Positions 29,840 to 60,296 of a stretch of DNA of 64,000 nucleotides are shown here, piece after piece (position 1 is the stretch's first letter; each line of letters opens with the position of its first letter). The position numbers were made by a program, and so were the translations under genes. Below the pieces are notes generated by a model, which saw nothing but the letters and a program-made list of their open reading frames with translations, was not told the DNA's origin and did no database searches. The DNA lies in the NCBI GenBank assembly GCA_039188975.1, contig JBCCYT010000005.1, positions 2,251 through 66,250 on the forward strand, given 5' to 3'. Source of the DNA: Actinomycetota bacterium (GTDB lineage: Bacteria > Actinomycetota > Acidimicrobiia > Acidimicrobiales > Aldehydirespiratoraceae).

Positions 29840-29850
29840 GCCCGCACCTC

Positions 29851-43379: not shown

Positions 43380-43428
43380 CGCGGCGCACCGGGTTGGGGC
43401 GTTCGAGTGGGAGTGGCACGCTGAGGGG

Positions 43429-44631: not shown

Positions 44632-44675
44632 ACCTGCGCTTCATTGCCTGACGCTCTGGCGGTAGCATTGTCGTC

Positions 44676-45659
44676 ATGTCGCAGCAACTGATCGATGGGT
44701 TTGGGCGGGTCCATCGCGATCTCCGCATCTCCGTCACGGACCGGTGCAACTTCCGCTGTCAGTACTGCATGCCCGAGGAGGGCATGCAGTGGCAGCATCG
44801 ATCCGATCTGTTGACCTTTGAAGAGATCGAGCGGTTCGCGACCGTCATGGTCGAGCGGTTCGGCGTGGACGGCATCCGGCTCACGGGTGGTGAACCGCTG
44901 GTCCGAGCCCGGCTGCCCCTCCTGGTGGAAAAGCTGGCCAATCTTGGTGTCGACCTGGCGATGACCACCAATGGTGTGTCCCTTCCGTTGGTGGCGGAGG
45001 AACTCAAGAAGGCGGGTCTGAAGCGAGTCAACATCTCGCTCGACTCGCTGCGGCGCGACCGCTTTCATGAACTCACCCGGCGCGATGATCTCGAGCGGGT
45101 GCTTCTGGGGGTTGATGCTGCGCTCGATGCCGGGTTTGACCCGGTGAAGATCAACGTCGTCGTGATGAAGGGCATCAACGACGATGAAGTGCTCGACTTT
45201 GCCGAGTGGGGCCGACAAACCGGCGTCGTCGTTCGCTTCATCGAGTTCATGCCGCTCGACGCCGACCGGATCTGGAACAACTCGCTCGTGCTGACGCAAG
45301 CGGAGATCGTCGAAACGCTGCAAGGCGCCTACGAGCTCGAACCGATCGAGCGCACGTCGGCGCCCGCCACACGGTGGCGCTACGCCGACGGCGGCGGGGA
45401 GATCGGCGTGGTGGCGACGGTCAGCGAGTCGTTCTGCTCCACCTGTGATCGGGTGCGCATCACCGCCGACGGTCAGTTTCGGTCATGTCTGTTCTCGACG
45501 GACGAGACCGACGTGCGGGCCATCATGCGTGACGGGGGAGACGATGATGCGGTCGCCGCGGCGGTGCAGGCGAGCGTCGGTGCCAAGTGGGCCGGTCATC
45601 AGATCAACCAGGTCCACTTCATCCGACCCCGCCGCAGCATGAGCGAGATCGGCGGCTGA
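44676..45659 (+). CDS. moaA: GTP 3',8-cyclase MoaA (radical SAM)
   Basis: 327-aa ORF. CNFRCQYCMP radical-SAM cluster motif, a C-terminal CSTCDRVRITADG second-cluster motif and the terminal GG. Confidence 0.95.
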   Translation: MSQQLIDGFGRVHRDLRISVTDRCNFRCQYCMPEEGMQWQHRSDLLTFEEIERFATVMVERFGVDGIRLTGGEPLVRARLPLLVEKLANLGVDLAMTTNGVSLPLVAEELKKAGLKRVNISLDSLRRDRFHELTRRDDLERVLLGVDAALDAGFDPVKINVVVMKGINDDEVLDFAEWGRQTGVVVRFIEFMPLDADRIWNNSLVLTQAEIVETLQGAYELEPIERTSAPATRWRYADGGGEIGVVATVSESFCSTCDRVRITADGQFRSCLFSTDETDVRAIMRDGGDDDAVAAAVQASVGAKWAGHQINQVHFIRPRRSMSEIGG

Positions 45660-46138
45660 TGGTGAGCGACCATGGCTTCACCCATCTCGACCCGCTGGGC
45701 CGTGCTCGGATGGTCGACGTCACGCCGAAGGAGCCGACCCACCGTCGAGCGATTGCTCGCGCTCGGGTCACGATGACTCCCGAGACGGCGTCGGCGGTCG
45801 CACAGGGTGCGATCAAGAAGGGCGATGTTTTGGCGGTGGCTCGTGTTGCGGGGATCCAGGCTGCGAAGCGGGCTTCGGATCTGATTCCGCTCTGTCACCC
45901 GCTCATGGTCGGTGCGGTCACGATCAACTTCGAGATCAATGACGACTCCATCGAGGTCGAGGCTGCAGTCGACACGTTCGATCGCACCGGCGTCGAGATG
46001 GAAGCGCTCACGGCGTGCTCGGTTGCGGCGCTGACGATTTATGACATGTGCAAGTCGAAAGACAAGGCCATGGTGATCGGCGACATTGCACTGTGGGAGA
46101 AGACCGGCGGCAAGTCCGGGTCGTATCGGCGCTCCTGA
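45659..46138 (+). CDS. moaC: Cyclic pyranopterin monophosphate synthase MoaC
   Basis: Track ORF 45587..46138. The ATG at 45659 overlaps the moaA stop (TGATG). MVDV..K..T.R.A, IPLCHPL and IYDMCK blocks. Confidence 0.93.
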   Translation: MVSDHGFTHLDPLGRARMVDVTPKEPTHRRAIARARVTMTPETASAVAQGAIKKGDVLAVARVAGIQAAKRASDLIPLCHPLMVGAVTINFEINDDSIEVEAAVDTFDRTGVEMEALTACSVAALTIYDMCKSKDKAMVIGDIALWEKTGGKSGSYRRS

Positions 46139-46349: not shown

Positions 46350-46817
46350 ATGTTGTCGACGTCGATCGTCCTGCTCGTGCTGGGGCTTGGTTGGTGTACC
46401 TACCTGGCCATCTGGTGGAAGGACTCCCGCAAGACGGCGAACAGCCGCACCGATGCGATCTCGTCGTTCACCAACGGCATGGGCTCACTGGGCGGTACGT
46501 CTGCTCGTGCATCGGTGAACCCGCTCGCCGCTCGAGGCTATGACCTCAAGCCCCGGTCATCGGGGGCTGCGGCTCGCCGTCGGCAGCAGATTTTCACCGC
46601 CCTGGGTTGCGCCGCACTCGTGACCCTCCTGGCGACGTTCGTCGTCGGCCCGCTCGCCTTGCTGGTCCACATCGTGATCGACGGCACGCTCGGCGCCTAC
46701 GCCTATGCCGTGGTGCAGCGCCGGAACCTCGCTGCCGAACGCGAGATCAAGGTCCAGATGCTCTACCCCGAGGGCGTGACGCCGTTGGCGCAGATGCGTC
46801 GCACCGTCAACGCCTGA
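46350..46817 (+). CDS. Small membrane protein, unknown family
   Basis: 155-aa ORF. N-terminal TM IVLLVLGLGWCTYLAIWW and a second hydrophobic pair (ALVTLLATFVVGPLALLVHIVI). GGAGGGG lies ~9 nt upstream of the ATG. Confidence 0.65.
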   Translation: MLSTSIVLLVLGLGWCTYLAIWWKDSRKTANSRTDAISSFTNGMGSLGGTSARASVNPLAARGYDLKPRSSGAAARRRQQIFTALGCAALVTLLATFVVGPLALLVHIVIDGTLGAYAYAVVQRRNLAAEREIKVQMLYPEGVTPLAQMRRTVNA

Positions 46818-46872: not shown

Positions 46873-46945
46873 GGGGGTGTAGCTCAGTTGGTAGAGCGCC
46901 TCGGTCGCATCGAGGAGGCCAGGGGTTCAACTCCCCTCACCTCCA
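46873..46945 (+). tRNA. tRNA-Ala (anticodon CGC)
   Basis: Hand-folded cloverleaf. Acceptor GGGGGTG/CACCTCC with a G3:U70 wobble (the Ala identity pair). D arm GCTC-AGTTGGTA-GAGC. Anticodon arm CCTCG-GTCGCAT-CGAGG (anticodon CGC). 5-nt variable loop. T arm AGGGG-TTCAACT-CCCCT. Discriminator A. CCA is not fully encoded (ACCC). Confidence 0.93.
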
Positions 46946-46955
46946 CCCCGTGAAG

Positions 46956-47051: not shown

Positions 47052-47951
47052 TTACGAGTAGGTGAGGGTTGCGGTCAGGCCAGAAAGTTCATTGCGGCCC
47101 AAGCACTCAGATGGTGTCGTCACGAGAAGCACTCCCGCGGACGGCATCCAGTCATCTCCCAACAGCGGGTCAGGAGCGAGTTGAAGCAGGCATCGCTCGG
47201 TCGGTGCGGTCGGATCGAAGCCCTGCGGGTTGGGTCGACCGAGCAGCTGATGCGGCGGGTGTGTCGGTCCGAAGTGCCGATACGTAATCCAATCGTCATC
47301 GGTGATCCCCGCAGGTGCAAAGACCGACTCCAGATGTGAGAACGACGATTCGAATGCCATGGCCACGCCACCATGAGGGCATGACGCGACCGGAGTATGG
47401 GGTCGGTGGCGTGCCGGGTCGACCGTAGGAATCCACACCGCGTGGGCCCAATGCTGATCACCGTGAACGATGGCCTCGTCGCCGTCGGTGGTTCGCAGCT
47501 GCCAGATCTGCACGATGCCGTGGCTTGGGAGGCGGTCGAGCCCGTCGGGCCAGTCGGAAATCTGGGTGTGAACCTCAGCCAAATTCACCTGGGCGAGAAA
47601 GGTCAGAACAGGATCCTGACCGGCCTCAACCGCAGGAGGATCTGGCAGTTCGAAACCGCCAGGCTGGTAGGGCTCGCCTCCGAATCGTGACGTTGTGGGA
47701 TCCATCTCGACCCTGGCGCCCGACGCCCGGATGGCGATCGATGGCGACGACGGGTCACCACACGCGGTGTGCACCCGGGCCAGACGGTCCGGTGTCGCCA
47801 GTTGTGCGTAGCGGGCGGGGTCGGCCTGGAACAGCGCCCGCTGGCGCTGAATCTCAGATCGGCGGGCACGGTCTTCAGCCCGGTGCGCTGCACCTGCTTC
47901 CCGTTCGCGCCGGAGCCAGGAGATGAACCTGAATCGTGCGGTTCGGGCCAT
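47052..47951 (-). CDS. DUF1963 (YwqG-like) domain protein with a basic N-terminal extension
   Basis: 299-aa ORF. SRFGGEPY motif, FLAQVNLAEV, and the C-terminal CLLQLAPDPLLGDDWMPSAGVLLV block typical of DUF1963. The start is 9 nt downstream of the stop of the binding-protein gene. Confidence 0.75.
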   Translation of the reverse strand: MARTARFRFISWLRREREAGAAHRAEDRARRSEIQRQRALFQADPARYAQLATPDRLARVHTACGDPSSPSIAIRASGARVEMDPTTSRFGGEPYQPGGFELPDPPAVEAGQDPVLTFLAQVNLAEVHTQISDWPDGLDRLPSHGIVQIWQLRTTDGDEAIVHGDQHWAHAVWIPTVDPARHRPHTPVASCPHGGVAMAFESSFSHLESVFAPAGITDDDWITYRHFGPTHPPHQLLGRPNPQGFDPTAPTERCLLQLAPDPLLGDDWMPSAGVLLVTTPSECLGRNELSGLTATLTYS

Positions 47952-47960
47952 CAGCGAATG

Positions 47961-49625
47961 TCAGCGTGGCGCAGGGCGCCAGTCGTTGAGGCCGGTGATG
48001 CACACGGCATCGCCGCTGTCACGGATGTAGGGGAATGGCTGAGTGCACGGGAAGCTGAACACCTGAGTTTGGATGACGTCCGGCATCTGCCCTTTCCCCG
48101 GAGTGATGCTCGCCGGGATCATCGCCGAGAGATCAACGGGACCCAGGTTCTCGAGCGCGTTCTCGATGTCGGCGCGGGTTGGGTTGTCGCCGGCGTCGTA
48201 GATCGACCGAGCCATGACCCGCATGATCGTGCAGATGGATGTCGCCATCCCGTATGCCGAGTCGCCTCCTTGGTCCTCCCATTGATGGTTCGCGCCGATG
48301 GCATTGTTGTCGTTGTAGGTACCGACGCACATCTCCTGGTACGGCGTTGGCTCGTAGCCATCGGCTCGGTAGCCGCCGGTGTCGCGGAAGTCGATGATGA
48401 TCGCCCCGTCATAGAGCGCCCCGGCCCCCGGGGTGTTTGCGATCTGACCAGAGACCAGCTCGCCAGCTTGGCTGTTGAAGTCTGACGCGTAGAACTGCAC
48501 ATCGCCCGGCTCGAACCCCTGCTGCGCCATCTCATCGATGTACCCGGGAGCGGTGAGGATTCCCATGGCGTTGAAGAAATGCTCGATGCCCGCATTCCGC
48601 ATGTTGGTAACCGACTCTGGAACGCCGCCGACACAGACCGTGCTGCCTTCGCAGGCAATGATGTCGAAGACGACCTCGAGCCCTGCTTCTCGAAGTGGTG
48701 TGACGAGGCTCGCCTCGATGTCTTCGGGTTGTCCAGGGGTGTCTGGAACGACGACTCCGATGACATCGCCCGCTTCGAGACGGCCTTGGGCCAAAAGATC
48801 GGCCGCCGCAAAGCTGAGGTTCTCGGAATTGGTGGTCGACAAGCTGACCAGACGACCTTCACCACGCGCCATGAAGTCATCGGACTGGCCTTGCGTCGAC
48901 ACGAACATCGTCTGTTGCTCCTCGACGATGCACAGCACTGCGGAGCCCTGGAAGCCGGAGCTGTTGAGGATCATCACGGCGTTGAAATCCTCCGTTGCTT
49001 CCAGACACGCAGCGTTGCGTTCGGTCTGGGTTGTCGGACCGAAGAGTGCGACCTCGATCGTGTCGAGCTCGAGCATGCGACCCCGGATGCCGCCGCACTC
49101 GGTGTTGATGTACTCGGTGAACACGCGGAACATCTCGTTCATGTCACCCACCGGCACGCCGAAGCCGATCGCCGCGGCGTCTTCGAGACGCGACTTGATG
49201 TGGGTGATCGAGATGCTGTCCGCGGCGATGCCCGCTTCGATGTCGGCTCGATCTGCCGCCTCTCCCGTGTCGGTGCAGAACGTGTTGATCTGGGTGAACG
49301 GGTGGTCCCCGCGATCGAACGACTCCTGGAAGTCGACGAAGATGCCCCCGCGAGGGTCGTCGTAGAAGTTGGGGAGTGGCTCCGCCGGTTCGTCCTCGGC
49401 TTCGTCATCCCCCGGATCGGCCTCGCTGCTGTCTCCACTCGCATCGTCGTCGGTGGCCGCGGTCGAGTCATCTTCGGGCGCCGCGTCGCTGCTGGCGCTG
49501 GCGTCGGTCGTGGTGTCGTCGGCATCGCCTGCGCTGCTGTCGACCTCGCCGCCGCATGCGGAGGCAAGCAGCGCAATGACGAACATCACCGCGTACCAGT
49601 GCTTGGTTCGACTGGTCGATCGCAT
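47961..49625 (-). CDS. ABC substrate-binding lipoprotein (LivJ / Peripla_BP_6-like) with a long acidic linker
   Basis: Track ORF 47961..50021. The real start is ATG 49625 (MRSTSRTKHWYAVMFVIALLASA/CGG lipobox). ~65 aa of D/E/S/T/A low complexity, then a two-lobe alpha/beta binding-protein-like sequence next to Liv-type permease genes. Confidence 0.75.
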   Translation of the reverse strand: MRSTSRTKHWYAVMFVIALLASACGGEVDSSAGDADDTTTDASASSDAAPEDDSTAATDDDASGDSSEADPGDDEAEDEPAEPLPNFYDDPRGGIFVDFQESFDRGDHPFTQINTFCTDTGEAADRADIEAGIAADSISITHIKSRLEDAAAIGFGVPVGDMNEMFRVFTEYINTECGGIRGRMLELDTIEVALFGPTTQTERNAACLEATEDFNAVMILNSSGFQGSAVLCIVEEQQTMFVSTQGQSDDFMARGEGRLVSLSTTNSENLSFAAADLLAQGRLEAGDVIGVVVPDTPGQPEDIEASLVTPLREAGLEVVFDIIACEGSTVCVGGVPESVTNMRNAGIEHFFNAMGILTAPGYIDEMAQQGFEPGDVQFYASDFNSQAGELVSGQIANTPGAGALYDGAIIIDFRDTGGYRADGYEPTPYQEMCVGTYNDNNAIGANHQWEDQGGDSAYGMATSICTIMRVMARSIYDAGDNPTRADIENALENLGPVDLSAMIPASITPGKGQMPDVIQTQVFSFPCTQPFPYIRDSGDAVCITGLNDWRPAPR

Positions 49626-49755
49626 TGCGGGGCCCCCTCGGTTGGCACCGGTCGTGTGCCGGTGATTACCCGGCGAGATGCCGGATCGGTAGAGTCTCGT
49701 CGCCTGCGAAGGTGCGACACAAGTCACACCACACCGGGTTGATGTCGGGGGACGT

Positions 49756-51966
49756 ATGGGGGATCGAACCGAGACTGCGAGCGACGATGCCGCAACGCTC
49801 GCCGCCGCGGTGCTCGACGAGGAAGCCAAGCGACAAGCGGCCCAAGCTGAACGCGACGCCGGAGTCGTGCTGCCCGATGATCTTCTCCCCGGCGTCGGTG
49901 ACGAACCGATGACGCTCACCCAGGCGATGGCCTCGGGTGGGCGGTTCACCGTCGTCATGTTGTTCGTGCTCGGCCTGATCGACGAACTGCCCCGTGCCAT
50001 ACGGGTGCTCGCCCCCGACATTCAGAACTCGCTCGGCATCTCCGACACCGTGCTCGCCGGCGTACTCGGCTTCGGCGGGGTCACCCTCGTCCTCGGTGCC
50101 GTTCCGATGGCGGCGCTCGCCGATCGGGTTCGCCGGGTCGCGCTCATTCCCGTGATGACGATCGTATGGGCCGGAGCAACAGCCTTGTCCGGCGCGGTCG
50201 TCAATGCCTTCCAGCTCTTTTGGACCAACGCGATCGCCGGGCTCGGCCACTCGTACCGCATCCCGGTGTCGAACTCATTGCTGACCGACACCTACCCGAT
50301 CCAGGCCCGCGCCCGGGTCTTTGCCTTCGAAGGGTTGGGTCGACCGTTGGGCCAGTTGCTCGGTCCGCTGCTCGTCGGCGGCATCGCTGCACTCATCGGT
50401 GGCGACGACGGTTGGCGATGGGCGTTCGTCATCATCTCCATCCCGCCCGTCGTCGTCGCCCTCATCGCAACCCGCATGAACGAACCGCCCCGCGGTCAGT
50501 TCGACCAGAAAGCCGTGCTCGGCGACGATGAGGCACTCGAGATCGACGAGCTCGAGCCATCGATGAGCACCGCCCTCGCACGGCTCCGCAAGATCCGCAC
50601 CTTCTACTACCTGGCGACGGGTGTCGGCGTGCTGGGATTTGCGCTCATCGCGGTCCCGCTTCAGTTCAATCTGCTCCTCGAAGACAAGTACGCCCTCGGC
50701 GCGTTCGAGCGAGGTGCCGTCGAAGCGCTGATGTGGGTCGGGTCGCTGATCGCCATACCTTTCGCCGGCCGCCACTTCGACCGCATCTTCCGCCGAGATC
50801 CCGAGCGGCTGATGCGGCTCCAGGGGCGACTCGTCATGCTCGCCGGCGTACTCTTTCTGATCGCGCTGCCGATCAAGGCGATCGGACCGCTCGTCATCGG
50901 CATGGCGCTCGCCCAGTCAGCGATTTCCGCCAGCTTCGTCGCCGCCCCCACGATCATCGCCGCGGTGTCGCCCTACCGCATCCGTTCCCAAGCCTTCGCC
51001 CTCCTACCGGTTTTCGTGTTCTTGATGGGGGGCTTCTTCGGTGGCCTCATCGCTGGGCAAATCTCCGACGCCTACAACGAACGCACGGCGATGCTCGTCA
51101 TCGCACCGGCGGCGGCGGTGATCGGCGGCTGGCTGATCCAGCAGGGTGCCAAGCACATCCGCCGCGACATCTCCCTTGCGGTCGAAGAGCTGCTCGAAGA
51201 GCAAGACGAAACGGCGCGGATCGTGGCCGACCCCGACGCCGTGCCGGCGCTGCAGGTCCGCAATCTCGACTTCAGCTACGGACCGGTCCAGGTGCTGTTC
51301 GACATCAATCTCGACGTGGGCGCCGGCGAGGTCGTTGCGCTGCTCGGAACAAACGGCGCAGGCAAGTCGACCCTGCTTCGCGCCATCTCCGGGCTCGGGA
51401 TCCCCGATCGGGGCGTCGTACGGCTCAACGGTCGCACGATCACCTACGCCGAGGCCGAGACTCGGTTCCGAGTCGGCATCGTGCAACTGCGGGGTGGGGC
51501 CGGCACGTTCCCGGGCCTGTCGATCGAGGACAACCTGCGCGCCAGCCTGCTCAGCGCCGGCCTCCCGTCGAACGAGATCGAACGCCGCATCCAGACCGCA
51601 ATCGAACGGTTCCCGGGCTTGCGCGATCGACTCCACGTTCCCGCCGACGAGCTCTCCGGGGGTCAGCAACAGATGCTCGCTCTGGCCATGACGCTGGTCC
51701 AGGAGCCCGAAGTCTTGCTGATTGACGAACTCAGCCTCGGACTGGCACCGGTGGTCGTACAGGAACTGCTTCGCGTGGTCGAGCAGCTCAAATCCGAAGG
51801 TCAAGCGATGGTCATCGTCGAGCAATCGCTCAACGTTGCGCTCGCCTTCGCCGACCGAGCGATCTTCATGGAGAAAGGAGAAGTTCGCTTCTCCGGACCA
51901 GCCCGAGAACTCCTCGAGCGCGGTGACCTCGCCCGAGCAGTCTTTCTCGGAGGCGAAGGCGGATGA
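49756..51966 (+). CDS. Fusion protein: 12-TM MFS domain plus LivF-type ABC ATPase domain
   Basis: 736-aa ORF. MFS hallmarks: AALADRVRRV loop motif, GWRWAF and two 6-TM halves. From ~aa 495 a LivF-like NBD: GTNGAGKST, LSGGQQQML and LLIDELSLGLAP. Continuous frame with high G/C third positions throughout. Confidence 0.8.
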   Translation: MGDRTETASDDAATLAAAVLDEEAKRQAAQAERDAGVVLPDDLLPGVGDEPMTLTQAMASGGRFTVVMLFVLGLIDELPRAIRVLAPDIQNSLGISDTVLAGVLGFGGVTLVLGAVPMAALADRVRRVALIPVMTIVWAGATALSGAVVNAFQLFWTNAIAGLGHSYRIPVSNSLLTDTYPIQARARVFAFEGLGRPLGQLLGPLLVGGIAALIGGDDGWRWAFVIISIPPVVVALIATRMNEPPRGQFDQKAVLGDDEALEIDELEPSMSTALARLRKIRTFYYLATGVGVLGFALIAVPLQFNLLLEDKYALGAFERGAVEALMWVGSLIAIPFAGRHFDRIFRRDPERLMRLQGRLVMLAGVLFLIALPIKAIGPLVIGMALAQSAISASFVAAPTIIAAVSPYRIRSQAFALLPVFVFLMGGFFGGLIAGQISDAYNERTAMLVIAPAAAVIGGWLIQQGAKHIRRDISLAVEELLEEQDETARIVADPDAVPALQVRNLDFSYGPVQVLFDINLDVGAGEVVALLGTNGAGKSTLLRAISGLGIPDRGVVRLNGRTITYAEAETRFRVGIVQLRGGAGTFPGLSIEDNLRASLLSAGLPSNEIERRIQTAIERFPGLRDRLHVPADELSGGQQQMLALAMTLVQEPEVLLIDELSLGLAPVVVQELLRVVEQLKSEGQAMVIVEQSLNVALAFADRAIFMEKGEVRFSGPARELLERGDLARAVFLGGEGG

Positions 51967-54818
51967 TCGAACTCGCCGGTATCGCCATCAGCCAGCAGGC
52001 ACTCCTCGTCGGCCTGGTCACCGGCCTGACCTACGCCGCGTTCGCCGCCGGCTTCGTGCTGATCTACCGATCGACCGGCGTGCTCAACTTCGCACACGGT
52101 GAGATGGGTGCGTTTGGCCTCGCCGTCTTCGTCCTCCTCCTCGTCAACTACGACATCAACTGGTGGCTGGCGTTCCTGCTCGCGGTTGCTGCGTGCGCGC
52201 TCGCGGGCGCCGTCGTGGAACTCGTCGTCATACGCCGCCTGTTCGACTCGCCTCGACTCGTCGTCTTGATCGCGACCATCGGAGTCGGCCAGATCCTGTT
52301 GCTCGCCCGAGTGAGCTGGATCCCCGACATCACCGCCGGCGGGTCGATCCCGACACCGTTCGACGTCACCTGGGAACCGACGAACAGCCTCCGGCTCCAA
52401 GCCCGCGAGCTGACCGTCCTCGTCGTCGTACCGCTCCTGATCGCGTGCCTTGGGCTGTTTCTCACCCGGACCCGATTCGGGTTGGCGGTTCGGGCCTCAG
52501 CAAGCAATCCCGACACCGCCCGGGTCTTTGGCACCTCGCCGCGGCGAGTCTCGACGATCGTGTGGGCGATCAGCGGTGGCTTCGCCGCAGCCACCGCAAT
52601 CCTGATCGCCCCGATCAACGGCACCCAAGCCGCGCTGGTCGACGACACCGGCCAAGCCCTCGCCGAAGTGCTGCTGCTTCGCGTCCTCATCGTGTCGCTA
52701 CTGGCGCGGATGCGTTCGCTACCCGGGGTCGTCGGTGCGGGCATCGCAGTCGGGGTGGTCGAGAAGATCGTGCGCGACAACGTCGCCACCACGAACCAGA
52801 CGATCGTCGACCTATTCCTGTTCCTCGCCGTCTTGATCGTCGTGCTCGTCCTCGCCCGCTCCCAGCGAGACACGAGCAGCTGGTCGCTCGCCCCACGCAC
52901 TCGCCCCGTCCCCGAACGGCTCCGAAGCATCTGGTGGGTGCGCCACCTCAACCACATCGGGTTCATCGGGCTCTTCACGTTTCTGGGGGTCTTGCCGCTC
53001 GCCGTCACTACCAACGCGGGACTGTTCACGTGGAGCATCATCCTGATCTGGGCGATGGTCGCGCTGTCGCTCACGATCCTCACCGGCTGGTCGGGTCAGC
53101 TCTCACTCGGACAGTTTGCGTTCGTCGGTGTCGGCGGGCTCACCACGGTTGCCTTGAGCCGAGGTCACGATCTGCCGGTGCCGTTCGATCTGTTCGACGT
53201 CTCGGTCGAACTCCCGTGGGGTCTGTCGGTGCTTGGCGGAACGATCGCCGGAATCGTCTTCGCCATGATCGTCGGCATCCCGGCGCTTCGCGTCCGAGGC
53301 CTGTTCCTCACCGTCGCAACCCTCGCCTTCGCCGTCGCCTCGGCGCGCTGGCTGTTCGTGCAAGACGTCTTCACCGGTGGCAGCAGCATCCCCCGACCGA
53401 CACAACCACCGAAACTGTTCGGAATCGACTTCGATCAGAGCCGAACGAACCTCTACTACCTCTGCCTCGGATCCTTGGTCGCCATGTCGTGGATCGCGGC
53501 TCGGATTCGGGCCACCGGCATCGGTCGCACACTCATCGCCGTGCGAGACAACGAAGACATGGCCGCAGCCTCGACCGTTCCGCCCGCCCGGGTCAAGCTC
53601 GCCGCCTTCGCCGTCTCCGGCGGCATGGCTGCGTTCGCCGGCGGACTCCTCGTCTCCGTTGTCCCCAGCATCGAACCCAGCACGACCTTCGCCGCAGCGG
53701 AGTCGATCCAGGTCGTCGTGGTGGCGATCATCGGCGGACTCGGCTCGGTCGCGGGCCCCGTCCTCGGTGCGCTGTGGGTACGGGGTATCCCCGAAATCAC
53801 CCCCGAAGCGCTGCTCGACCTGCAGCGCCTCTTCACCTCCAACATCGGGCTCCTCGTGCTGCTGATGTACTTCCCGGGAGGCCTCCTGCAGGTCGTGTAC
53901 CTCGGGCGAGACCGGCTCCTGAAGCGGGCCGAAGCGCGCCTGCCCGAGCCGGAAACTCCCACAGCGACCCCGGCCGTCGCGAAGCGACCACCGGCCCGCC
54001 CCGAGCGCCCGGCACTCGCAGATGCCACCTCGGCGCTCGCCGCCCGCGACATCGACGTTCGCTTCGGAGGCAACATCGCCGTCGACGGCGTGAGCTTCGA
54101 CGTCGCGCCCGGCGAACTGGTCGGACTCATCGGCACCAACGGCGCCGGGAAATCAACACTCCTCAACGCAATCAGCGGCTTCGTCCCCGCAACGGGAACC
54201 ATCTCGGTTCGGGGCGTCGACGTCAGCGGCCTCGACGCAGCACAACGCCATCGCGTCGGGCTCGGACGCGGATTCCAAGACGCACGGCTCTACCCCGACC
54301 TCACCGTTCGCGAGTGCCTCCAGGTTGCCCTCGAAGCCCGGCAACGGTCACCGTTCGTCGCATCGATGCTTGGCCTCCCACCATCAGGACGCCGCGAACG
54401 ATCGAAGCGGGCCGACGCCGACGACATCATCGACTACCTCGGACTCGGCCGCTACGCCGATCAAGCCACCGGCAACCTGTCCACCGGCACCCGCCGCATC
54501 GTCGAACTGGGCAGCCTCCTCGCAGTCGACGCCCAGATCCTCCTGCTCGACGAACCCACCGGCGGAGTCGCCCAACGAGAAACCGAAGCGTTCGGGCCGC
54601 TGATCAAACGAATCCAAGCCGAGCTCGACGCCGCCGTCGTCGTCATCGAACACGACATGCCACTCGTCATGAGCATCTCCGACCGGGTCTACTGCCTCGA
54701 AGCCGGCACCATCATCGCCCAAGGCACCCCCGACGCCGTTCGCAACAACCCCGACGTCATCTCCAGCTACCTCGGCACCGACGAACGCGCCATCCAACGC
54801 TCCAACGCGCCGAACTGA
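51963..54818 (+). CDS. Fusion protein: LivH-like permease plus LivM-like permease plus LivG-type ABC ATPase
   Basis: 951-aa ORF whose start overlaps the upstream stop (ATGA). LivH-like N-terminus (YRSTGVLNFAHGEMGAFG), LivM-like middle (GQLSLGQFAFVGVGG) and NBD (GTNGAGKST, LLLDEPTGG, IEHDM). Confidence 0.85.
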   Translation: MIELAGIAISQQALLVGLVTGLTYAAFAAGFVLIYRSTGVLNFAHGEMGAFGLAVFVLLLVNYDINWWLAFLLAVAACALAGAVVELVVIRRLFDSPRLVVLIATIGVGQILLLARVSWIPDITAGGSIPTPFDVTWEPTNSLRLQARELTVLVVVPLLIACLGLFLTRTRFGLAVRASASNPDTARVFGTSPRRVSTIVWAISGGFAAATAILIAPINGTQAALVDDTGQALAEVLLLRVLIVSLLARMRSLPGVVGAGIAVGVVEKIVRDNVATTNQTIVDLFLFLAVLIVVLVLARSQRDTSSWSLAPRTRPVPERLRSIWWVRHLNHIGFIGLFTFLGVLPLAVTTNAGLFTWSIILIWAMVALSLTILTGWSGQLSLGQFAFVGVGGLTTVALSRGHDLPVPFDLFDVSVELPWGLSVLGGTIAGIVFAMIVGIPALRVRGLFLTVATLAFAVASARWLFVQDVFTGGSSIPRPTQPPKLFGIDFDQSRTNLYYLCLGSLVAMSWIAARIRATGIGRTLIAVRDNEDMAAASTVPPARVKLAAFAVSGGMAAFAGGLLVSVVPSIEPSTTFAAAESIQVVVVAIIGGLGSVAGPVLGALWVRGIPEITPEALLDLQRLFTSNIGLLVLLMYFPGGLLQVVYLGRDRLLKRAEARLPEPETPTATPAVAKRPPARPERPALADATSALAARDIDVRFGGNIAVDGVSFDVAPGELVGLIGTNGAGKSTLLNAISGFVPATGTISVRGVDVSGLDAAQRHRVGLGRGFQDARLYPDLTVRECLQVALEARQRSPFVASMLGLPPSGRRERSKRADADDIIDYLGLGRYADQATGNLSTGTRRIVELGSLLAVDAQILLLDEPTGGVAQRETEAFGPLIKRIQAELDAAVVVIEHDMPLVMSISDRVYCLEAGTIIAQGTPDAVRNNPDVISSYLGTDERAIQRSNAPN

Positions 54819-54821
54819 CCC

Positions 54822-54886
54822 GCCTACGGCACGGTGTCGTCGCGTGCCTACGGCACGGTGTCGTCGCGTGCCTACGGCACGGTGTC
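54822..54886. repeat. 24-bp tandem repeat, 2.7 copies, duplicating the stop-proximal end of the C11 peptidase gene
   Basis: GCCTACGGCACGGTGTCGTCGCGT at 54822-54845 and 54846-54869. A third partial copy at 54870-54886 contains the real stop (CTA 54872-54874). GGCACG-N9-CGTGCC hairpins span the unit junctions. Confidence 0.95.
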
Positions 54887-56857
54887 CAACGCGTTGACGG
54901 TGGAGACGTTGCCAGCGAAGTCATACACATTCAGCTCCGCGTACACGAGATCGCCCGACACCATCGGCTCGAAGTCGTAGAGCAGCTCCGGCAGCGACGC
55001 AAACAAGCCGACGTCGCTCGTCGTGATCCACTCGAGCGTGCCGTCGGGATACAGATTCAAAACCCGCGGATAGATCAGCCCGTTCGGATCGGCGACGAGC
55101 TCGCCGAACGTCCCCCCATCGGTGATCTCGTAATAGGTCTCCGACAAAATCTCCCCGACCGACGGGTCGTAGATGATCGTCAAAATCACATCGTGGGCCG
55201 GATCATCCGTACCGAACTCCTCCGGCGGTACATACGCCAGCGGAACATCGACCAGCCAGATGCCCTCATCATCGATCGTCAGATCGAAATAGCCGACTGC
55301 AGAATCGCCAACCGAGTCGGTCAACGTCAACACGGTCAGGTCATAGATACCCAGCACCTCACCGGTGTCATCGAACGTGATCGCCGGTTCCTCGCCGAAA
55401 TAGATGATCGAATCGTCAGACTCGTCGATCGTGCCGTACGCGATCGTGACATCCACCGCATTGGCCAGCTCGTCGACCCCGAGCTCGGCGATCAGGTTGT
55501 AGCCGTCCTCGTCGAAGAAGCTCACGACTTCGCCACTCGGATCGAACGTCGCCAGCTCGTCCGCGGCGATGTTCTCCCCGGCCTGGTAGTACGCCGACAG
55601 CGCATCGCCCCACGCCGGTACGCCGTCAAGGAACAGATACCCCTGACGGAAGTTCGGCGCGTACTCCGGGAAGTAGATCGCGAGTCCGGTGGCCCGATCC
55701 GTCACCGGCCCGGTCACCTGCTCGACGACCAGGGCTTCCATCGCTTGCTGAAGACCGGAGTCGTCATAGTCGGCCTCCGTCGCGATGTTGGACGCGAGCC
55801 CGCCCAGATCGATCAGGTTGCTGTCGAGATCCGGATTCGGATCCCGCCCAAATGCCAACGTACGGGCCCGAGCCCGTCCGACGTCGGGTCCAGAGCCGGG
55901 CGAGCCGAGGGCCGACCCCAGATCCTCGACCGCATCGGTCACCGCGCCCATCGCCGACAGATCGAGCAACGACAAGGTGATCGCCTCGTCAGCGCCCTCG
56001 TCTCTCGCCTGCGCGGCGTACCCCGCGATCAACGCTGAACCGACCTGTTCTGGGCTGCTGCCACCAACTCCCGCAAGGGCCCGATAGTCCCAGCCATGAC
56101 CCGGTTCGAGCTCCTGTGACGCCAGCATGTAGTCCGCATACGGGGCGACGACGCTGGCGACCTCGTAGGTCGCCATGAGGCATGCGTCGAACCCGATGAG
56201 ATCGAGGCGATCTGCCCCCGCTGCGGTCAACCCGGCACCGACGCCCGCCTGGATCTCGGCCAGATCCAACACGTCGAGACCGTCGGTCTCGTCGGGGCCC
56301 ATACCGGTCCACCCAGCACCGTGATCCCACAGGATCAGCGCCGTGTGGTCAGCGGGCCACGCCGTCATGCCGTACTCGACGAAATCGGCGAGTACCTGTT
56401 GATCACCGAGATTCAACTCGAACGAACCGTCGGACAGATCCTCGACCTCGCCATCGAGCACCCGCAAGAGCTTGGTGTCTTCGAAGTCGGCGAGACCCAA
56501 CACACCCTCGTCTGTGAATGCCGGATGCCGGTCGATCAAGGCAATGATCTCGACATCGTCGGCCGCGGCCCCTGACATCTCGACCATGTCCTCGAGCAGG
56601 AACGGTTCGAGGTCGGTGTCGCCCATCCCGTAGATCAAGAACGTCCACGACGTATCAGACGACACCGACTCGGACGTCGTAGGAATGACCGTCGTCGTGG
56701 GCGCCGCCTCGGTCGTTGTTGTCGTCGACGTTGTTGTCGTCGACTCGCTCGCCGGTTCGTCAGCGACAAGGTCGGCCAGTGCGTCTGGATCGCCCTCGGA
56801 ACAGCCAACCGCAATCAGTGCGGAAACGAGCAACGCAACGCCACAACGTCGGATCAT
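54872..56857 (-). CDS. Clostripain-like (peptidase C11) lipoprotein with a large C-terminal extension
   Basis: Track ORF 54872..57280. The real start is ATG 56857 (MIRRCGVALLVSALIAVG/CSEG lipobox, GAGGTGG upstream). Thr-rich linker. Catalytic His block LILWDHGAGW and Cys block IGFDACLMA, as in C11 peptidases. ~330 further residues of unknown fold. Confidence 0.8.
   Translation of the reverse strand: MIRRCGVALLVSALIAVGCSEGDPDALADLVADEPASESTTTTSTTTTTEAAPTTTVIPTTSESVSSDTSWTFLIYGMGDTDLEPFLLEDMVEMSGAAADDVEIIALIDRHPAFTDEGVLGLADFEDTKLLRVLDGEVEDLSDGSFELNLGDQQVLADFVEYGMTAWPADHTALILWDHGAGWTGMGPDETDGLDVLDLAEIQAGVGAGLTAAGADRLDLIGFDACLMATYEVASVVAPYADYMLASQELEPGHGWDYRALAGVGGSSPEQVGSALIAGYAAQARDEGADEAITLSLLDLSAMGAVTDAVEDLGSALGSPGSGPDVGRARARTLAFGRDPNPDLDSNLIDLGGLASNIATEADYDDSGLQQAMEALVVEQVTGPVTDRATGLAIYFPEYAPNFRQGYLFLDGVPAWGDALSAYYQAGENIAADELATFDPSGEVVSFFDEDGYNLIAELGVDELANAVDVTIAYGTIDESDDSIIYFGEEPAITFDDTGEVLGIYDLTVLTLTDSVGDSAVGYFDLTIDDEGIWLVDVPLAYVPPEEFGTDDPAHDVILTIIYDPSVGEILSETYYEITDGGTFGELVADPNGLIYPRVLNLYPDGTLEWITTSDVGLFASLPELLYDFEPMVSGDLVYAELNVYDFAGNVSTVNALDTVP
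56714..56743. repeat. Perfect 15-bp tandem duplication (x2) inside the Thr-rich linker of the C11 peptidase gene
   Basis: CGTTGTTGTCGTCGA occurs twice back to back. On the minus strand this encodes STTTT-STTTT. Confidence 0.95.
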
Positions 56858-56916: not shown

Positions 56917-58473
56917 TCACGATGGCGGTGGCCGGCGGTCGTCGGCGCACATGGCCATGGCGACATTGCGGCCGCTCACCCCCCACACACCGGCGCCCGG
57001 ATAGGTACCCGCACCGCACAGATACAAGCCAGTGAGCGGGGTGCGGTACCGGGTCAGCTCGCGTTGGCGCCCCACGACGACGTCGAGTGGTGTGCCAACC
57101 CACGACGGGGCGTACCCGCGCCGCATCGAAAACTGCTCTTCGTAGTCGACCGGCGTCATGACACGCCACTCGCCGATGCCCTCGGCCCAGCTGGGTTGGA
57201 CCGTTTCGGCGAAGCGGTCGATCCAACGTTTCGGCTCGCTGGACCCCTCCCAACCTCCGTCGAGGTCGTAGGGCGTCCACAGCACTTCGAGGCTGAGGAG
57301 ATGATGCTCCTCGTCGGGACGCATGGTCGGATCGGGAACCGACGGGGTGTTGACCAGCATTGCCGGGTCGGTCCCGATCCGACCGCGAGCCGCATCCGCA
57401 TGCATCGCGCTGAGCGTCGCAACGTCCGGTCCGATCGCAAGCGTTGGTGCCGTCGGATCACCCAGGTCGGTGAGATCGGTCGCCGCCTGCAGCACCGGTG
57501 GCGCTTCCATGACGAGGTCGATCTTCGATTCGTACCCATCGTGGGTGGGTTGGCCAGACCACCGGGCGCGCGCCGCAGCGGCGGCGCGGCCGGGAACGCC
57601 GTCGAGCCAGTCGACCAGCACGACAGAGGGGTCGATCGCAGCCACGACTCGTGTTGCTGACCGTTCGCCGCCCTCGGTGGTCCGAACGCCGACGACGGCG
57701 TCACCACGACACAACAACGCCTCGACCCGGGTATCGACCTCGAATCGGGCACCGGCCGCTTCGGCTGAGCGACGAAGCGCGTCGGTGAGGGCACCACTAC
57801 CGCCCACGGGCCGACCGACCGGCACGAGGTGTTTCGTCGCGTAGGCGAGTGCTGCCAGTCCCGTGCCCGGCATCTGGGGGTCAACTCCCCACACCACCGG
57901 TCCGGTGATGAGGGCAGGGACAATCAAATCCTCGTCGTCGAAATACGCCCGCAGGACGTCCGCGGCTGAGCGTTTCGCGAGCCGAAGAACGGTCGCCAGT
58001 CCGGCCGCCCGCCGCCGAAGGGTGTGTTGGATGGTGGTTCTCGCCGATGGCGGCTTCACCGACACATCGAGCAGCAGGCGAGCTGCAGGGAGGAGGTCAT
58101 TCAGATAGCGCCGGTAGCCATCGACCGCGTGGGGATGGGTCCGGGCCAGACCCGCAAGCGTTCGCTCGGCATCGTGAAAGTGGAACCACGGCGAGCCGTT
58201 CCAACGCATCCCGAGATACGAGGGCTCGAGATCGATGTACGACAGTCCGTGGGTGCTCAAGTCGAGCTCGTCGTGCACGGGCGTTGCCCGCACGAAGATG
58301 TGGTCGCAATTGCAAATGTTGACTCGGGCACCGACGGCATCGACCGTGCTTGCGCAGCCGCCCGTGTGCGGTCGAGCTTCGAGCACGGTCACGTCGTAGC
58401 CCGATCGAGCCAGGTACGCCGCCGCGGTGAGACCGTTGTGACCCCCACCGACGACGAGGACATCATCGGGCAT
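56917..58473 (-). CDS. Phytoene-desaturase-family NAD(P)/FAD-dependent oxidoreductase (CrtI-like)
   Basis: 518-aa ORF. N-terminal dinucleotide fold VLVVGGGHNGLTAAAYLARSGYDVTVLEA and the C-terminal LYLCGAGTYPGAGV block. Confidence 0.85.
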   Translation of the reverse strand: MPDDVLVVGGGHNGLTAAAYLARSGYDVTVLEARPHTGGCASTVDAVGARVNICNCDHIFVRATPVHDELDLSTHGLSYIDLEPSYLGMRWNGSPWFHFHDAERTLAGLARTHPHAVDGYRRYLNDLLPAARLLLDVSVKPPSARTTIQHTLRRRAAGLATVLRLAKRSAADVLRAYFDDEDLIVPALITGPVVWGVDPQMPGTGLAALAYATKHLVPVGRPVGGSGALTDALRRSAEAAGARFEVDTRVEALLCRGDAVVGVRTTEGGERSATRVVAAIDPSVVLVDWLDGVPGRAAAAARARWSGQPTHDGYESKIDLVMEAPPVLQAATDLTDLGDPTAPTLAIGPDVATLSAMHADAARGRIGTDPAMLVNTPSVPDPTMRPDEEHHLLSLEVLWTPYDLDGGWEGSSEPKRWIDRFAETVQPSWAEGIGEWRVMTPVDYEEQFSMRRGYAPSWVGTPLDVVVGRQRELTRYRTPLTGLYLCGAGTYPGAGVWGVSGRNVAMAMCADDRRPPPS

Positions 58474-58534
58474 CGTGCACCGCCATCTGACCGAGACCGC
58501 CTCGACGGGGCGGTCGGTTGGCTAGGGTGCCGCG

Positions 58535-59320
58535 ATGCCCGGCCGCCTCCACGAGCTCAGCGGACCCGAGATTCAGGAAAAGCTCTCGTCGTCGTCGATC
58601 GTGCTCGTACCGATCGGTGCGATCGAACAGCACGGTCCGCACCTGCCGATGATCGTCGACTACCTGATCGCCGATGAGGTCGCGCAAGCCGTCGTCGATC
58701 GTGCCAGCGACGACCTCGATGTGTGGATGGTGCCGACGCTCCCGTTTTCCAAGTCCGACGAGCACGCGTGGTCGCCCGGCACCATGTGGCTGAGCCGAGA
58801 CACCTCGCAACGGGTGCTCGACGACCTCGCCGCTCGCGTGGCGGAGATGGGAGTGCAACGGCTCGTGTTCTTGAATGGACACGGTGGCAACTCCACCATG
58901 CTGAACGTCGCATGCCGAGAAGCCCGTCGACGGCACGGTCTGTTGACGTTCCTGGTCCACCCGTTCGCGCCGCCGGCCTACTCGCCACCGAGCGCAGTCG
59001 ACACCGGAGAACTGGGCATGGGGATCCATGGCGGCTACGACGAGACATCGGTGGTCATGCACCTGCGCCCCGAGCTGGTGAAGCTCGACCGAGCGGTTCG
59101 CAACGTCCCGGAGTGGCTGGCCGACAACGAGCACGTCCGGTTCGGCGGATCGACCCAGTTCGGATGGATGTCTGACGACTTCGGCCCGCACGGACACATC
59201 GGTGATCCGACCGGGGCGACGGCCCAAGCGGGAGAACGGCTCTTCGAGCAGGCCGTGGGCCACGTGTTGGCCAGCCTCGGGGAAATTGCCACCTTTGACT
59301 TCCCGGATCGGGAGCCGTAG
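58535..59320 (+). CDS. Creatininase-family amidohydrolase
   Basis: 261-aa ORF. VLVPIGAIEQHGPHLP, FLNGHGGN and GIHGG blocks of the creatinine amidohydrolase family. That family also contains MftE-type and formamide hydrolases. Confidence 0.85.
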   Translation: MPGRLHELSGPEIQEKLSSSSIVLVPIGAIEQHGPHLPMIVDYLIADEVAQAVVDRASDDLDVWMVPTLPFSKSDEHAWSPGTMWLSRDTSQRVLDDLAARVAEMGVQRLVFLNGHGGNSTMLNVACREARRRHGLLTFLVHPFAPPAYSPPSAVDTGELGMGIHGGYDETSVVMHLRPELVKLDRAVRNVPEWLADNEHVRFGGSTQFGWMSDDFGPHGHIGDPTGATAQAGERLFEQAVGHVLASLGEIATFDFPDREP

Positions 59321-59323
59321 CCG

Positions 59324-59710
59324 ATGCCCAATCGTGCTGTCGACCCGACCGGGATTGCGCCTCCCGCCGCTGCGTACGTGCACGGTGTCGTGAGCGACGG
59401 ACCCGCGCGGCTCCTCCACACCAGTGGTGTCGTCCCGACCGCTCCGGATGGGACGGTGGCGAGCGATGTCGGCGCGCAAGCCGATGAGATCTGGCGAACG
59501 ATCTCGGCGTTGCTCACCGATGCCGACATGGCGACGACCGACATCGTGTCGGTGACGACCTATGTCGTCCCCGGGCAGGACCTCGGGCTCGTCATGGCGG
59601 CCCGGGATGCCGTGCTCGGCGGCCACCTGGCTGCCTCGACGCTCGTGATCGTCGCTGCCCTCGCCCGCCCGGAATGGCTGATGGAAGTCGCCATCGTGGC
59701 GGCTCGCTGA
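59324..59710 (+). CDS. RidA/YjgF-family reactive-intermediate deaminase-like protein
   Basis: 128-aa ORF of the right size, with a C-terminal ...PEWLMEVAIVA pattern typical of RidA-like proteins. The start is 3 nt after the previous stop. Confidence 0.7.
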   Translation: MPNRAVDPTGIAPPAAAYVHGVVSDGPARLLHTSGVVPTAPDGTVASDVGAQADEIWRTISALLTDADMATTDIVSVTTYVVPGQDLGLVMAARDAVLGGHLAASTLVIVAALARPEWLMEVAIVAAR

Positions 59711-59713
59711 GCG

Positions 59714-60265
59714 ATGGAGATCCTGCTCGTCGATGGCTTCGAAGGTGACGACGCGGTCGTCGCGACCGCGAGAGCGGTCCTCGAAGCCAACGGTCACACC
59801 GTGCATGTGATCGACCTTGCGGCCGACGACTTCCGCATCCACATGACGATGGAGGAACGTCGCCTCTACCACGACGAAGGCGAAAACCTGCTCGATCCCC
59901 AGGCTCAGGCCGCCGCCGACCTGTTGCCCGACGTTCAGGGTGTGCTGTTTTGCTGTCCCCATGTCACGTTTGGCGTGCCCGCCCGAGTGAAGGGCTTCCT
60001 CGACCGGGTCTTCATTCCGGGGGTCGCGTTCACGTTCGATGATGCCGACAAGCTCGACCCGAAGTTGCGGCACATCCGCCGCGTCGGCCTCATCACCCGA
60101 AGCCCGCACGACGCTCGCACGGTTCGCCGGGCTCGAGACGGCGCTCGCCGCTACATCTTGTGGACGGTGCGGCTCAACTGTTCGTGGTTCGCACGTCGCA
60201 CCCATGTGCGACTTCGGCCCGAGGAGTCGACCGAGCGGGTGAGTGCTGCGCTTCGCCGATGGTGA
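59714..60265 (+). CDS. Flavodoxin_2-like NAD(P)H-dependent oxidoreductase
   Basis: 183-aa ORF. The layout MEILLVDGF...VHVIDL...LFCCPHVTFGVPARVKGFLDRVF resembles NQO/MdaB-type flavoproteins. Confidence 0.7.
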   Translation: MEILLVDGFEGDDAVVATARAVLEANGHTVHVIDLAADDFRIHMTMEERRLYHDEGENLLDPQAQAAADLLPDVQGVLFCCPHVTFGVPARVKGFLDRVFIPGVAFTFDDADKLDPKLRHIRRVGLITRSPHDARTVRRARDGARRYILWTVRLNCSWFARRTHVRLRPEESTERVSAALRRW

Positions 60266-60296
60266 TCCGGCGCCTACCTGGGCCGAAGGCGATCGT

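Follow-up and report, generated by a model that had tools for sequence, protein, structure and literature searches.

ATP-binding cassette (ABC) transporters and the major facilitator superfamily (MFS) are the two largest transporter superfamilies and are normally seen as separate, alternative ways to the same end, the former being driven by ATP and the latter by gradients. Among the ABC importers, the Liv and Urt systems are built from two permease domains of the BPD_transp_2 family, a G-type ATPase bearing a BCA_ABC_TP_C tail, an F-type ATPase and a cluster-B receptor, and their two ATP sites are asymmetric. In the classical Liv and Urt systems, these parts are five separate proteins. We analysed a stretch of 64,000 nucleotides (nt) from an Acidimicrobiales bacterium (contig JBCCYT010000005.1), the whole of which is called the window below, and it contained a locus with all the features shared by the Liv and Urt systems. 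However, the permeases and ATPases of this locus were packed into two chains, and the LivF-type ATPase was joined to an MFS domain with 12 transmembrane (TM) helices and carried motifs specific to the fusion.

The sequence of the locus supported well its assignment as a two-chain, binding-protein-dependent ABC importer of the LivHMGF/Urt (HAAT) kind with a lipoprotein receptor, and by domain criteria its transport activity would belong to the HAAT class. What appeared to be new was the presence of an integral MFS domain on the LivF subunit of such an importer. An earlier interpretation of the same DNA, made from the sequence alone (the sequence-only reading), knew of no characterised ABC system of this type. 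Likewise, we found no prior characterisation in the open-access literature, NCBIfam or the Protein Data Bank (PDB): no fusion of an MFS domain to an ABC ATPase was described in the open-access full-text literature searched, and there was no NCBIfam model for an MFS-LivF fusion and no PDB chain that combined the MFS and ABC ATPase folds. Thus, the MFS-LivF fusion was probably undescribed. In public records, such proteins were labelled only as "MFS transporter" or as "ABC transporter ATP-binding protein"/"ATP-binding protein", and these current annotation labels hide the fused architecture.

Domain content of the locus

The two transporter genes were located on the forward strand. The open reading frame (ORF) at 49756..51966 encoded 736 amino acids (aa; chain 1), and the ORF at 51963..54818 encoded 951 aa (chain 2). 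The sequence-only reading had described the former as a complete MFS domain followed by a LivF-type nucleotide-binding domain (NBD) and the latter as a fusion of LivH, LivM and LivG, and this domain content was borne out by Pfam, NCBIfam and AlphaFold2 (AF2).

Chain 1 started with an N-terminal cytoplasmic extension (aa 1-55; 49756..49920, + strand), where AF2 modelled a helix at residues 11-35 and where the motif DDLLPGVG was found at aa 41-48. The MFS domain followed (aa 56-470; 49921..51165, + strand), supported by Pfam, AF2, Foldseek, phmmer, conservation and the ratio of nonsynonymous to synonymous substitution rates (dN/dS). Namely, MFS_1 matched residues 82-373 with an E-value of 5e-30 and 105 bits, compared with a cut-off of 33.4, so that the profile scan supported the MFS fold proposed earlier. 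In the AF2 model of chain 1, residues 63 to 465 formed 12 TM helices, helices 6 and 7 were joined by a long loop, and the pLDDT was mostly 80-95. The Foldseek matches of this domain were 12-TM MFS structures, as expected from an MFS topology. The C-terminus of the MFS domain should be cytoplasmic because the NBD was attached to it. The characteristic motif A after TM2 read ALADRVRRV, with an invariant R127, and its repeat after TM8 read GRHFDRIFRR, where D342 was present in 29 and R346 in 28 of the 32 non-redundant family members. The buried residues of the domain were D76, E77 and R80 in TM1, H165 in TM4 and R319 at the start of TM8.

The MFS domain continued into an acidic connecting helix (aa 471-497; 51166..51246, + strand), which was recognised from the AF2 helix 442-491 and from its conservation in the family. 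The rest of chain 1 was the LivF-type NBD (aa 498-736 with the stop codon; 51247..51966, + strand), identified by Pfam, NCBIfam, a PDB match and its motifs. ABC_tran matched residues 515-658 (E 1e-28), and the best PDB match was 1ji0, with OpuCA also among the NBD matches. The top NCBIfam scores belonged to UrtE and LivF, all of them under the equivalog cut-offs (172 versus 286 for UrtE and 144 versus 441 for LivF). The motifs AALADRVRRV, GWRWAF, GTNGAGKS, LSGGQQQ and LLIDELSLGLAP were confirmed in the translation. We also considered a free LivF protein produced from an internal start. There was no Shine-Dalgarno-like sequence before the in-frame GTG codons at V490 and V496, and this product was unsupported since the junction had no obvious ribosome-binding site or start.

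Chain 2 consisted of three parts encoded on the same strand. The LivH-type permease (aa 1-310; 51963..52892, +) had a BPD_transp_2 match at 16-295 and a UrtB-type match at 13-294. The LivM-type permease (aa 311-680; 52893..54002, +) contained the second BPD_transp_2 stretch and a UrtC-type match at 355-642. The LivG-type NBD (aa 681-951 with the stop codon; 54003..54818, +) was identified by Pfam, NCBIfam, its motifs and the BCA_ABC_TP_C tail. The two stretches of BPD_transp_2 (PF02653) were highly significant (E 2e-59; 201.6 bits versus a cut-off of 26.8), and so was ABC_tran at 708-866 (E 2.5e-28), followed by BCA_ABC_TP_C (PF12399) at 917-941 with 40 bits versus 25.5. LivG and UrtD had the top NCBIfam scores for this NBD, LivG reaching 212 against a cut-off of 362. 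Since all the NCBIfam equivalog scores were far below cut-off, neither a Liv or Urt name nor the corresponding substrate was warranted for the locus. A sequence search of the PDB detected no solved homolog of the HAAT membrane domains, including the LivM part.

The stop codon of chain 1 and the start codon of chain 2 shared an ATGA (51963..51966, + strand), which had been pointed out before and was plainly seen in the DNA (GGC GGA TGA / ATG ATC GAA). A GGAGG sequence was located ~9 nt 5' of the chain-2 start, and a similar overlap was present in a variant locus described below (L081). The ATGA overlap indicated translational coupling of the two chains.

The motifs of the two NBDs differed. The F-type NBD had the Walker A motif GTNGAGKS, the signature LSGGQQQ and the Walker B motif LLIDE, and VEQS replaced its H-loop His. 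The G-type NBD had the same Walker A motif, a non-canonical signature LSTGTRR, the Walker B motif LLLDE and the H-loop IEHD. The non-consensus ATP site was composed of the F Walker A, VEQS and the G signature LSTGTRR, and the consensus site of the G Walker A, IEHD and the F signature LSGGQQQ. VEQS was found instead of the H-loop His in 82 of 82 F domains, and the LSTGTRR signature was strict in the MFS-associated G-type ATPases (85 loci). As judged from these motifs, the MFS domain is attached to the NBD half whose own ATP site is non-consensus. Ordinary Liv operons from the same search carried other non-canonical G signatures (LSYGDQR and LPYGALK), and therefore the asymmetry of the ATP sites was a family trait and not specific to the fusion. 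Among the operons sampled, it was the exact LSTGTRR form alone that was specific to the MFS-associated family.

The receptor gene (47961..49625, - strand) was divergent from the transporter genes and encoded a lipoprotein of 554 aa (start MRSTSRTKHW, lipobox LLASAC). This substrate-binding protein (SBP) had a signal peptide, the lipobox Cys24 and a tether of ~58 residues (~25-82), 40% of which were Asp or Glu. Its fold domain comprised ~470 residues; typical LivJ proteins have ~350 residues. There were 10 invariant cysteines in the SBP that probably form five disulfides. The SBP of the window had no Pfam or NCBIfam match of its own, and a profile made of nine SBP sequences had no match among the PDB sequences. 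Many of its orthologs were annotated with PF13458, as were the SBPs of distant loci. The AF2 model of the SBP had a pLDDT of 90, and Foldseek matched it to LivJ-type cluster-B proteins with an E-value of 1e-15. The top matches were 4eyg, 4n03, 4ey3, LivJ and LivK (TM-score 0.58/0.73), and the ligands of the nearest folds are aromatic acids, fatty acids and amino acids. In comparison with the Liv and Urt receptors, the SBP was cysteine-rich, lipid-anchored and only 10-15% identical to the solved ones. According to its model, it was a divergent cluster-B receptor (LivJ fold, Peripla_BP_6). Thus, the lipobox, the LivJ-type fold match and the PF13458 orthologs upheld the divergent LivJ-like lipoprotein of the earlier interpretation.

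Recurrence of the fusion and the partner of LivG

The fused gene was not limited to the window. A search with the chain-1 protein produced 1007 homologs at E <= 1e-10, and PF07690 together with PF00005 was found in 120 of the 120 top homologs listed, whose lengths were 670-779 aa. A genome scan with one genome per species identified 334 relatives, and the loci were compared for the best 80 of these 334, which came from 60 assemblies. The best loci were mostly from metagenome-assembled genomes of Acidimicrobiia, including complete chromosomes. Cultured Embleya and Yinghuangia (Streptomycetaceae) were also among them, with orthologs in E. scabrispora DSM 41855 and Yinghuangia seranimata. Two or three paralogs of the transporter were present per genome in the sponge symbiont Ca. 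Poriferisocius. A search of 72,556 plasmid and chromid records found a full-length match on the Embleya replicon only. This locus of Embleya sp. NBC_00888 was located on a 5.7-Mb linear replicon labelled 'plasmid', with only 8 annotated features in PLSDB.

In the loci that reached far enough, LivH, LivM and the G-type NBD were located 3' of the fused MFS-LivF gene (MFS-F) on the same strand, and the co-linearity of MFS-F with these parts (H-M-G) was kept down to ~32% MFS identity. Nearly all such loci had a frame of ~735-760 aa with a Walker A at ~545, then a frame of ~950-1000 aa with a Walker A at ~730-760. The exceptions were a locus with a split H-M-G frame (L028), a locus where no G-type NBD was found downstream (L030), and L069, in which the MFS domain and the NBD were in different frames and the SBP gene contained stops. 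The latter locus, labelled Acidobacteriota, would be a pseudogene or an error-rich assembly, possibly mis-binned.

Such a case raised the question of whether a frameshift, a mis-join or a read-through had falsely joined an MFS gene to a LivF gene in the window. Artefacts of this family do occur in databases, as illustrated by the split frames of L069 and by the protein P0271. The latter (856 aa) looked like an SBP-MFS fusion, and we rejected it because its Arg-rich out-of-frame stretches revealed a frameshifted read-through that joined an SBP to MFS-F. However, nearly all of the 80 loci, drawn from 60 independent assemblies among which were the complete genomes of cultured strains, had the fused frame uninterrupted, and it was present in every one of the top proteins listed above. 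Moreover, the linker sequence was conserved, and dN/dS across the junction revealed coding constraint. The frameshift that could have undone the sequence-only reading was sought and not seen. Since both long frames were conserved across loci, mis-assembly was rejected, and the probability of any such artefact was negligible. From these comparisons, we concluded that the MFS-LivF fusion is real, old, lineage-restricted and shared by at least 60 actinobacterial assemblies.

Alternative arrangements of the same domains were found as well. The MFS domain alone was compared with 1.84 billion cluster representatives and had 143 matches at E < 1e-30, of which the complete ones were mostly 700-750 aa long, that is, fused. 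Three representatives of ~1000 aa contained the MFS domain, the F-type NBD and the G-type NBD in a single chain. On the metagenome contig L081, a 650-aa LivH-LivM ORF overlapped a 1061-aa MFS-F-G ORF by 4 nt, and the metagenome contig L082 was alike. On another metagenome contig (L094), a 927-aa H-M-G chain was located 5' of a 742-aa MFS-F chain. Across the sequences compared, the G-type ATPase is on either chain and the gene order is reversible, the MFS domain is always directly N-terminal to F, and there are always two chains. H, M and G adjoined MFS-F in these arrangements too, and in the variants L081 and L082 they were divided between an H-M chain and an MFS-F-G chain. The F-type NBDs of the variants were 47-55% identical to that of the window, and most unfused LivF proteins of ordinary operons were ~32-46% identical to it. 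These sequences suggest a single origin of the MFS-F link with subsequent rearrangements.

It was conceivable that the two chains were independent machines that were merely co-expressed, with MFS-LivF working alone (e.g., as a homodimeric ATP-gated MFS) and H-M-G functioning via a G/G dimer. Several observations spoke against it. Namely, the two genes co-occurred without exception across at least 90 loci, with the stop/start overlap, MFS-F-G occurred as a single chain, and the complementary asymmetric motifs of F and G were fixed in 82-87 loci. An F/G heterodimer was argued for by these motifs, since F had the consensus signature without the His and G had the His without the consensus signature. 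We considered independent machines very improbable.

No other LivF-type gene and no other Liv-type component was found in the 64,000-nt window, and therefore MFS-F was the sole available F-type partner of the G-type ATPase. In the related operons, too, there was no second F-type NBD beside MFS-F. The ABC ATPase domains at 27419..31341 and 63525..63992 had ~27-34% identity to the Liv-type NBDs and would be part of other transporters. If an F/G dimer is to form, chain 1 must be in the complex, since it carried the only LivF-type ATPase. We infer a 1:1 complex of the two chains with the SBP, in which the MFS domain would be located beside LivH and LivM. The sequence-only reading had expected the LivF domain to dock on LivHMG and to bring the MFS domain along. 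The co-linearity, the lack of another LivF, the MFS-F-G chains and the selection described below all favoured this expectation, and the physical assembly would be deduced from them.

Possible roles of the MFS domain

Three functions had been proposed for the MFS part: a second translocation path, a sensing module and a coupled efflux/uptake device. Among these ideas, our data leaned to a working transport module. We tentatively preferred a coupled second pathway, with slightly less than even confidence, in which the MFS domain would be an integral, working transport module with its state coupled to the ATPase.

The strongest constraint in the system was found in the MFS part. In comparison with the two closest relatives (dS ~0.77, unsaturated), its dN/dS was 0.04-0.05, the lowest value obtained, versus 0.11-0.12 for the NBDs, 0.10 for LivH, 0.14-0.15 for LivM and 0.08 for the SBP. 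By this measure, purifying selection on the MFS part is strong. Moreover, the gating residues of MFS proteins were near-invariant family-wide (R127, D342, R346, D178/P181/R185, P406/R410 and W220/R221), R276, R319, G425 and G429 were also invariant, and there were P-x-x-x-R motifs at TM5 and TM11. D76/E77 was acidic in 27 of the 32 non-redundant members. In the alignment with characterised transporters, D76 corresponded to D41 of Spns, R80 to R47 of DgoT, and H165 to the protonation Glu of TM4 (E129 in Spns and E133 in DgoT). Exactly one of the positions 80 and 165 was basic in 70 of 82 members.

The nearest relative without a fusion (P0264, 36% identity) carried E/R in TM1, and its residue at position 165 was not acidic. 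It was found in an operon of AsnC, amidase, hydrolase, MFS and SDR genes that contained no ABC genes (an NBD overlapping the stop of P0264 was considered and rejected, since the gene there was the SDR). Because P0264 was located in a catabolic operon without ABC genes, the MFS lineage was likely to be one of ordinary carriers. The absence of the TM4 Glu from P0264 also suggested that the loss of this residue predated the fusion and was not a sign of decay.

Two elements of the junction were characteristic of the fusion. In the DDLLPGVG motif, G46 was invariant, and this was the lowest-entropy segment outside the NBD. In the acidic helix after TM12, D471 was invariant and S473, E478, E481, E482, E485 and R488 were conserved. 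AF2 modelled TM12 and the acidic helix as one straight helix (442-491) that ended at the first NBD strand. The LLPGVG motif and the acidic helix were conserved in the family with the MFS-F and H-M-G chains, and both were absent from the stand-alone P0264. The triple fusion P0348 did not have the LLPGVG motif, and only the RRDI junction was kept there. According to their conservation and the model, the motif and the helix were the foremost candidate contacts by which the MFS domain could be coupled to the ATPase cycle. In a stronger version of this idea, which we regarded as unlikely, the TM12-NBD helix would be a rigid mechanical link, and either the opening and closing of F/G would directly drive or gate the alternating-access cycle of the MFS domain or the hydrolysis of ATP would depend on the state of this domain. 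If true, this would be a hybrid primary/secondary transporter with one ATP motor for two translocation folds, and the first ATP-coupled MFS.

A number of observations weighed against a coupled second pathway. Across the family, position 165 in TM4 was Q, K or H and almost never E, and with the Glu replaced in this way classical H+ coupling at the TM4 site was unlikely. The covariation of positions 80 and 165 (Fisher p = 0.011 in the non-redundant set) essentially reflected two clades, with kinship ignored. The conservation of cavity versus peripheral helices gave p = 0.23, and TM10 was the most variable helix. In the AF2 model, the pLDDT was ~65-73 in the linker and below 50 in the N-terminal motif. 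No common substrate theme emerged among the flanking genes of the related loci. Finally, the very low dN/dS of the MFS part would fit a sensor equally well.

Such a sensor or transceptor would bind a solute without moving it, and its state would switch the LivG/F ATPase on or off via the TM12-NBD helix. The MFS domain would then be a membrane-embedded analogue of the regulatory domains at the C-termini of MalK or MetN. The replacement of the proton-coupling Glu of DgoT and Spns was consistent with this possibility, as was strong constraint, which is expected of a signalling domain too. Moreover, the LLPGVG motif and the acidic linker, which were the most conserved elements outside the NBD, were cytoplasmic and not in the cavity helices, and the MFS domain was tethered to the NBD with the non-consensus ATP site, VEQS facing LSTGTRR, which fits a regulatory half. 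However, P0264, apparently a normal transporter, did not have the TM4 Glu either, and both copies of motif A were kept in the fused family along with the buried acid/base cluster. Additionally, the divergence of the MFS domain among paralogs kept pace with that of LivH and LivM (~40% identity each), suggesting that it tracks substrate specificity. On balance, a sensor seemed rather unlikely.

The domain might also have a structural role only, as a membrane anchor or scaffold of LivF that aids its 1:1 pairing with H-M-G. Every variant compressed the system to two chains, as if stoichiometric assembly had been selected for, and both the result for cavity versus periphery and the absence of a conserved metabolic context pointing to a second substrate would be compatible with a scaffold. 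On the other hand, a 12-helix domain with this dN/dS was far more constrained than an anchor requires, and the gating motifs and buried charges were retained over ~30-90% identity. The canonical LivF needs no membrane anchor. Thus, a purely structural role was quite improbable.

If the MFS domain does form a coupled second pathway, it would be a working alternating-access module, not a mere anchor, and it would provide a second path for a small solute. This solute would probably be a carboxylate or a similar organic anion related to the compound delivered by the SBP, as hinted by the nearest MFS relatives, which were of the DgoT/Spinster type, and by the nearest SBP folds with their aromatic, fatty and amino acid ligands. 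The MFS domain might either take up compounds of the same class with low affinity or export a product. Through the acidic TM12-NBD helix and the LLPGVG motif, the conformation of the MFS domain would be tied to the nucleotide state of F/G. In such a system, the ABC route and the MFS route would regulate each other and would not run independently.

Genomic neighbourhood and relation to known transporters

The only genes conserved together were those encoding the SBP, MFS-F and H-M-G. The genes for DUF1963, the C11 peptidase, an FAD oxidase and molybdenum cofactor (Moco) synthesis were unconserved past the closest relatives, and in distant clades a Peripla_BP_6 protein was still nearby at another position. 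In one paralog of Ca. Poriferisocius (L040, 1071..5900), two tandem sulfatases (~524 aa each, without signal peptides) and a Peripla_BP_6 protein were divergent from MFS-F/H-M-G, and this arrangement hints that the paralog may import a sulfated organic compound. In Embleya sp. NBC_00888 (L037, 11032..14170), the SBP gene was located 3' of H-M-G and was followed by a GH3 glycosidase, and an alpha/beta-hydrolase also adjoined the locus. Since the positions of the receptors and the adjacent enzymes differed between clades, the MFS-F/H-M-G pair looked like a chassis that may be combined with various receptors for what are probably different substrates.

In the window, a divergent intergenic region of 130 bp (49626..49755) separated the SBP gene from the transporter operon of two genes and presumably contained the promoters of both. 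A riboswitch and leader scan found no Rfam element in this region, and there was no sigma-70-type consensus in it, although this consensus is uninformative for an actinobacterium. The DUF1963 gene (47052..47951, - strand) was located 9 bp 3' of the SBP gene in the same orientation, and the two were probably co-transcribed; none of the related loci had it. Upstream, the molybdenum cofactor cluster of MoeA, MoaA and MoaC (43264..46138, + strand) was syntenic only in the closest relatives (L001, L003 and L007), and tRNA-Ala with the anticodon CGC (46873..46947, + strand) separated it from the transporter cluster. A 155-aa ORF at 46350..46817 (+ strand) had membrane-like segments without a Pfam match and was conserved in L001, L003, L006 and L007. 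On the other side, a clostripain-family protein (54872..56857, - strand; Peptidase_C11, E 5e-44) with the lipoprotein-type signal LIAVGCSEGD was convergent with the operon end, and in other genomes its gene was not kept beside the transporter. The 651-aa ORF at 58463..60418 (- strand) did not match Pfam.

The nearest solved relatives of the MFS domain were DgoT, the D-galactonate:H+ symporter of E. coli (6e9n), the bacterial Spinster homolog HnSpns (6e8j) and human SPNS2 (8rl7). The Foldseek TM-score reached 0.79-0.83 on the target, and phmmer E-values of the 6e8j and 6e9n alignments were 8.6e-13 and 4e-6. The MFS domain resembled DgoT and Spns in motif A and in the acid/Arg cluster of TM1 at aligned positions. 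However, it was only ~15-22% identical to them, their TM4 Glu was replaced by H, Q or K, and they had neither an ATPase fusion nor an ABC operon. Among the characterised MFS subfamilies (ACS/DgoT, Spinster, AAHS and others), none could be assigned, the best NCBIfam model being TIGR00893 with 73.6 bits versus 395. Thus, the domain was a bona fide MFS outside any characterised subfamily.

Strong selection has maintained the covalent join between the two superfamilies in a lineage among whose members are abundant Acidimicrobiia from the sea, fresh water, soil and sponges. If the MFS domain is a functional partner of the importer, the locus would represent a natural system for cross-talk between primary and secondary transport, such as dual-affinity uptake, import-coupled efflux or ATP-gated facilitation, and a new kind of accessory domain for ABC importers. 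With respect to its ATP sites, the system resembled heterodimeric ABC transporters with one degenerate site, which also have one consensus and one non-consensus site.

Extra domains on importer NBDs are known from MalK and MetN with their C-terminal domains and from OpuA and OpuC with their CBS domains. Similar to these proteins, chain 1 had a further domain in covalent linkage with its importer NBD, and this domain could gate the ATPase. However, the extra domains of MalK, MetN, OpuA and OpuC are soluble, C-terminal and small, whereas here the domain was N-terminal, membrane-embedded and a complete transporter fold. MFS domains joined to other proteins have been described for the Sensor-Kinase-MFS family, TC 2.A.1.34 (PMC3924187), and for the MFS-mutarotase fusions of NanZ (PMC8461474). 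In these cases, an MFS protein was likewise joined to a signalling or enzymatic partner, whereas in the MFS-LivF fusion the partner was the motor of the other transporter superfamily.

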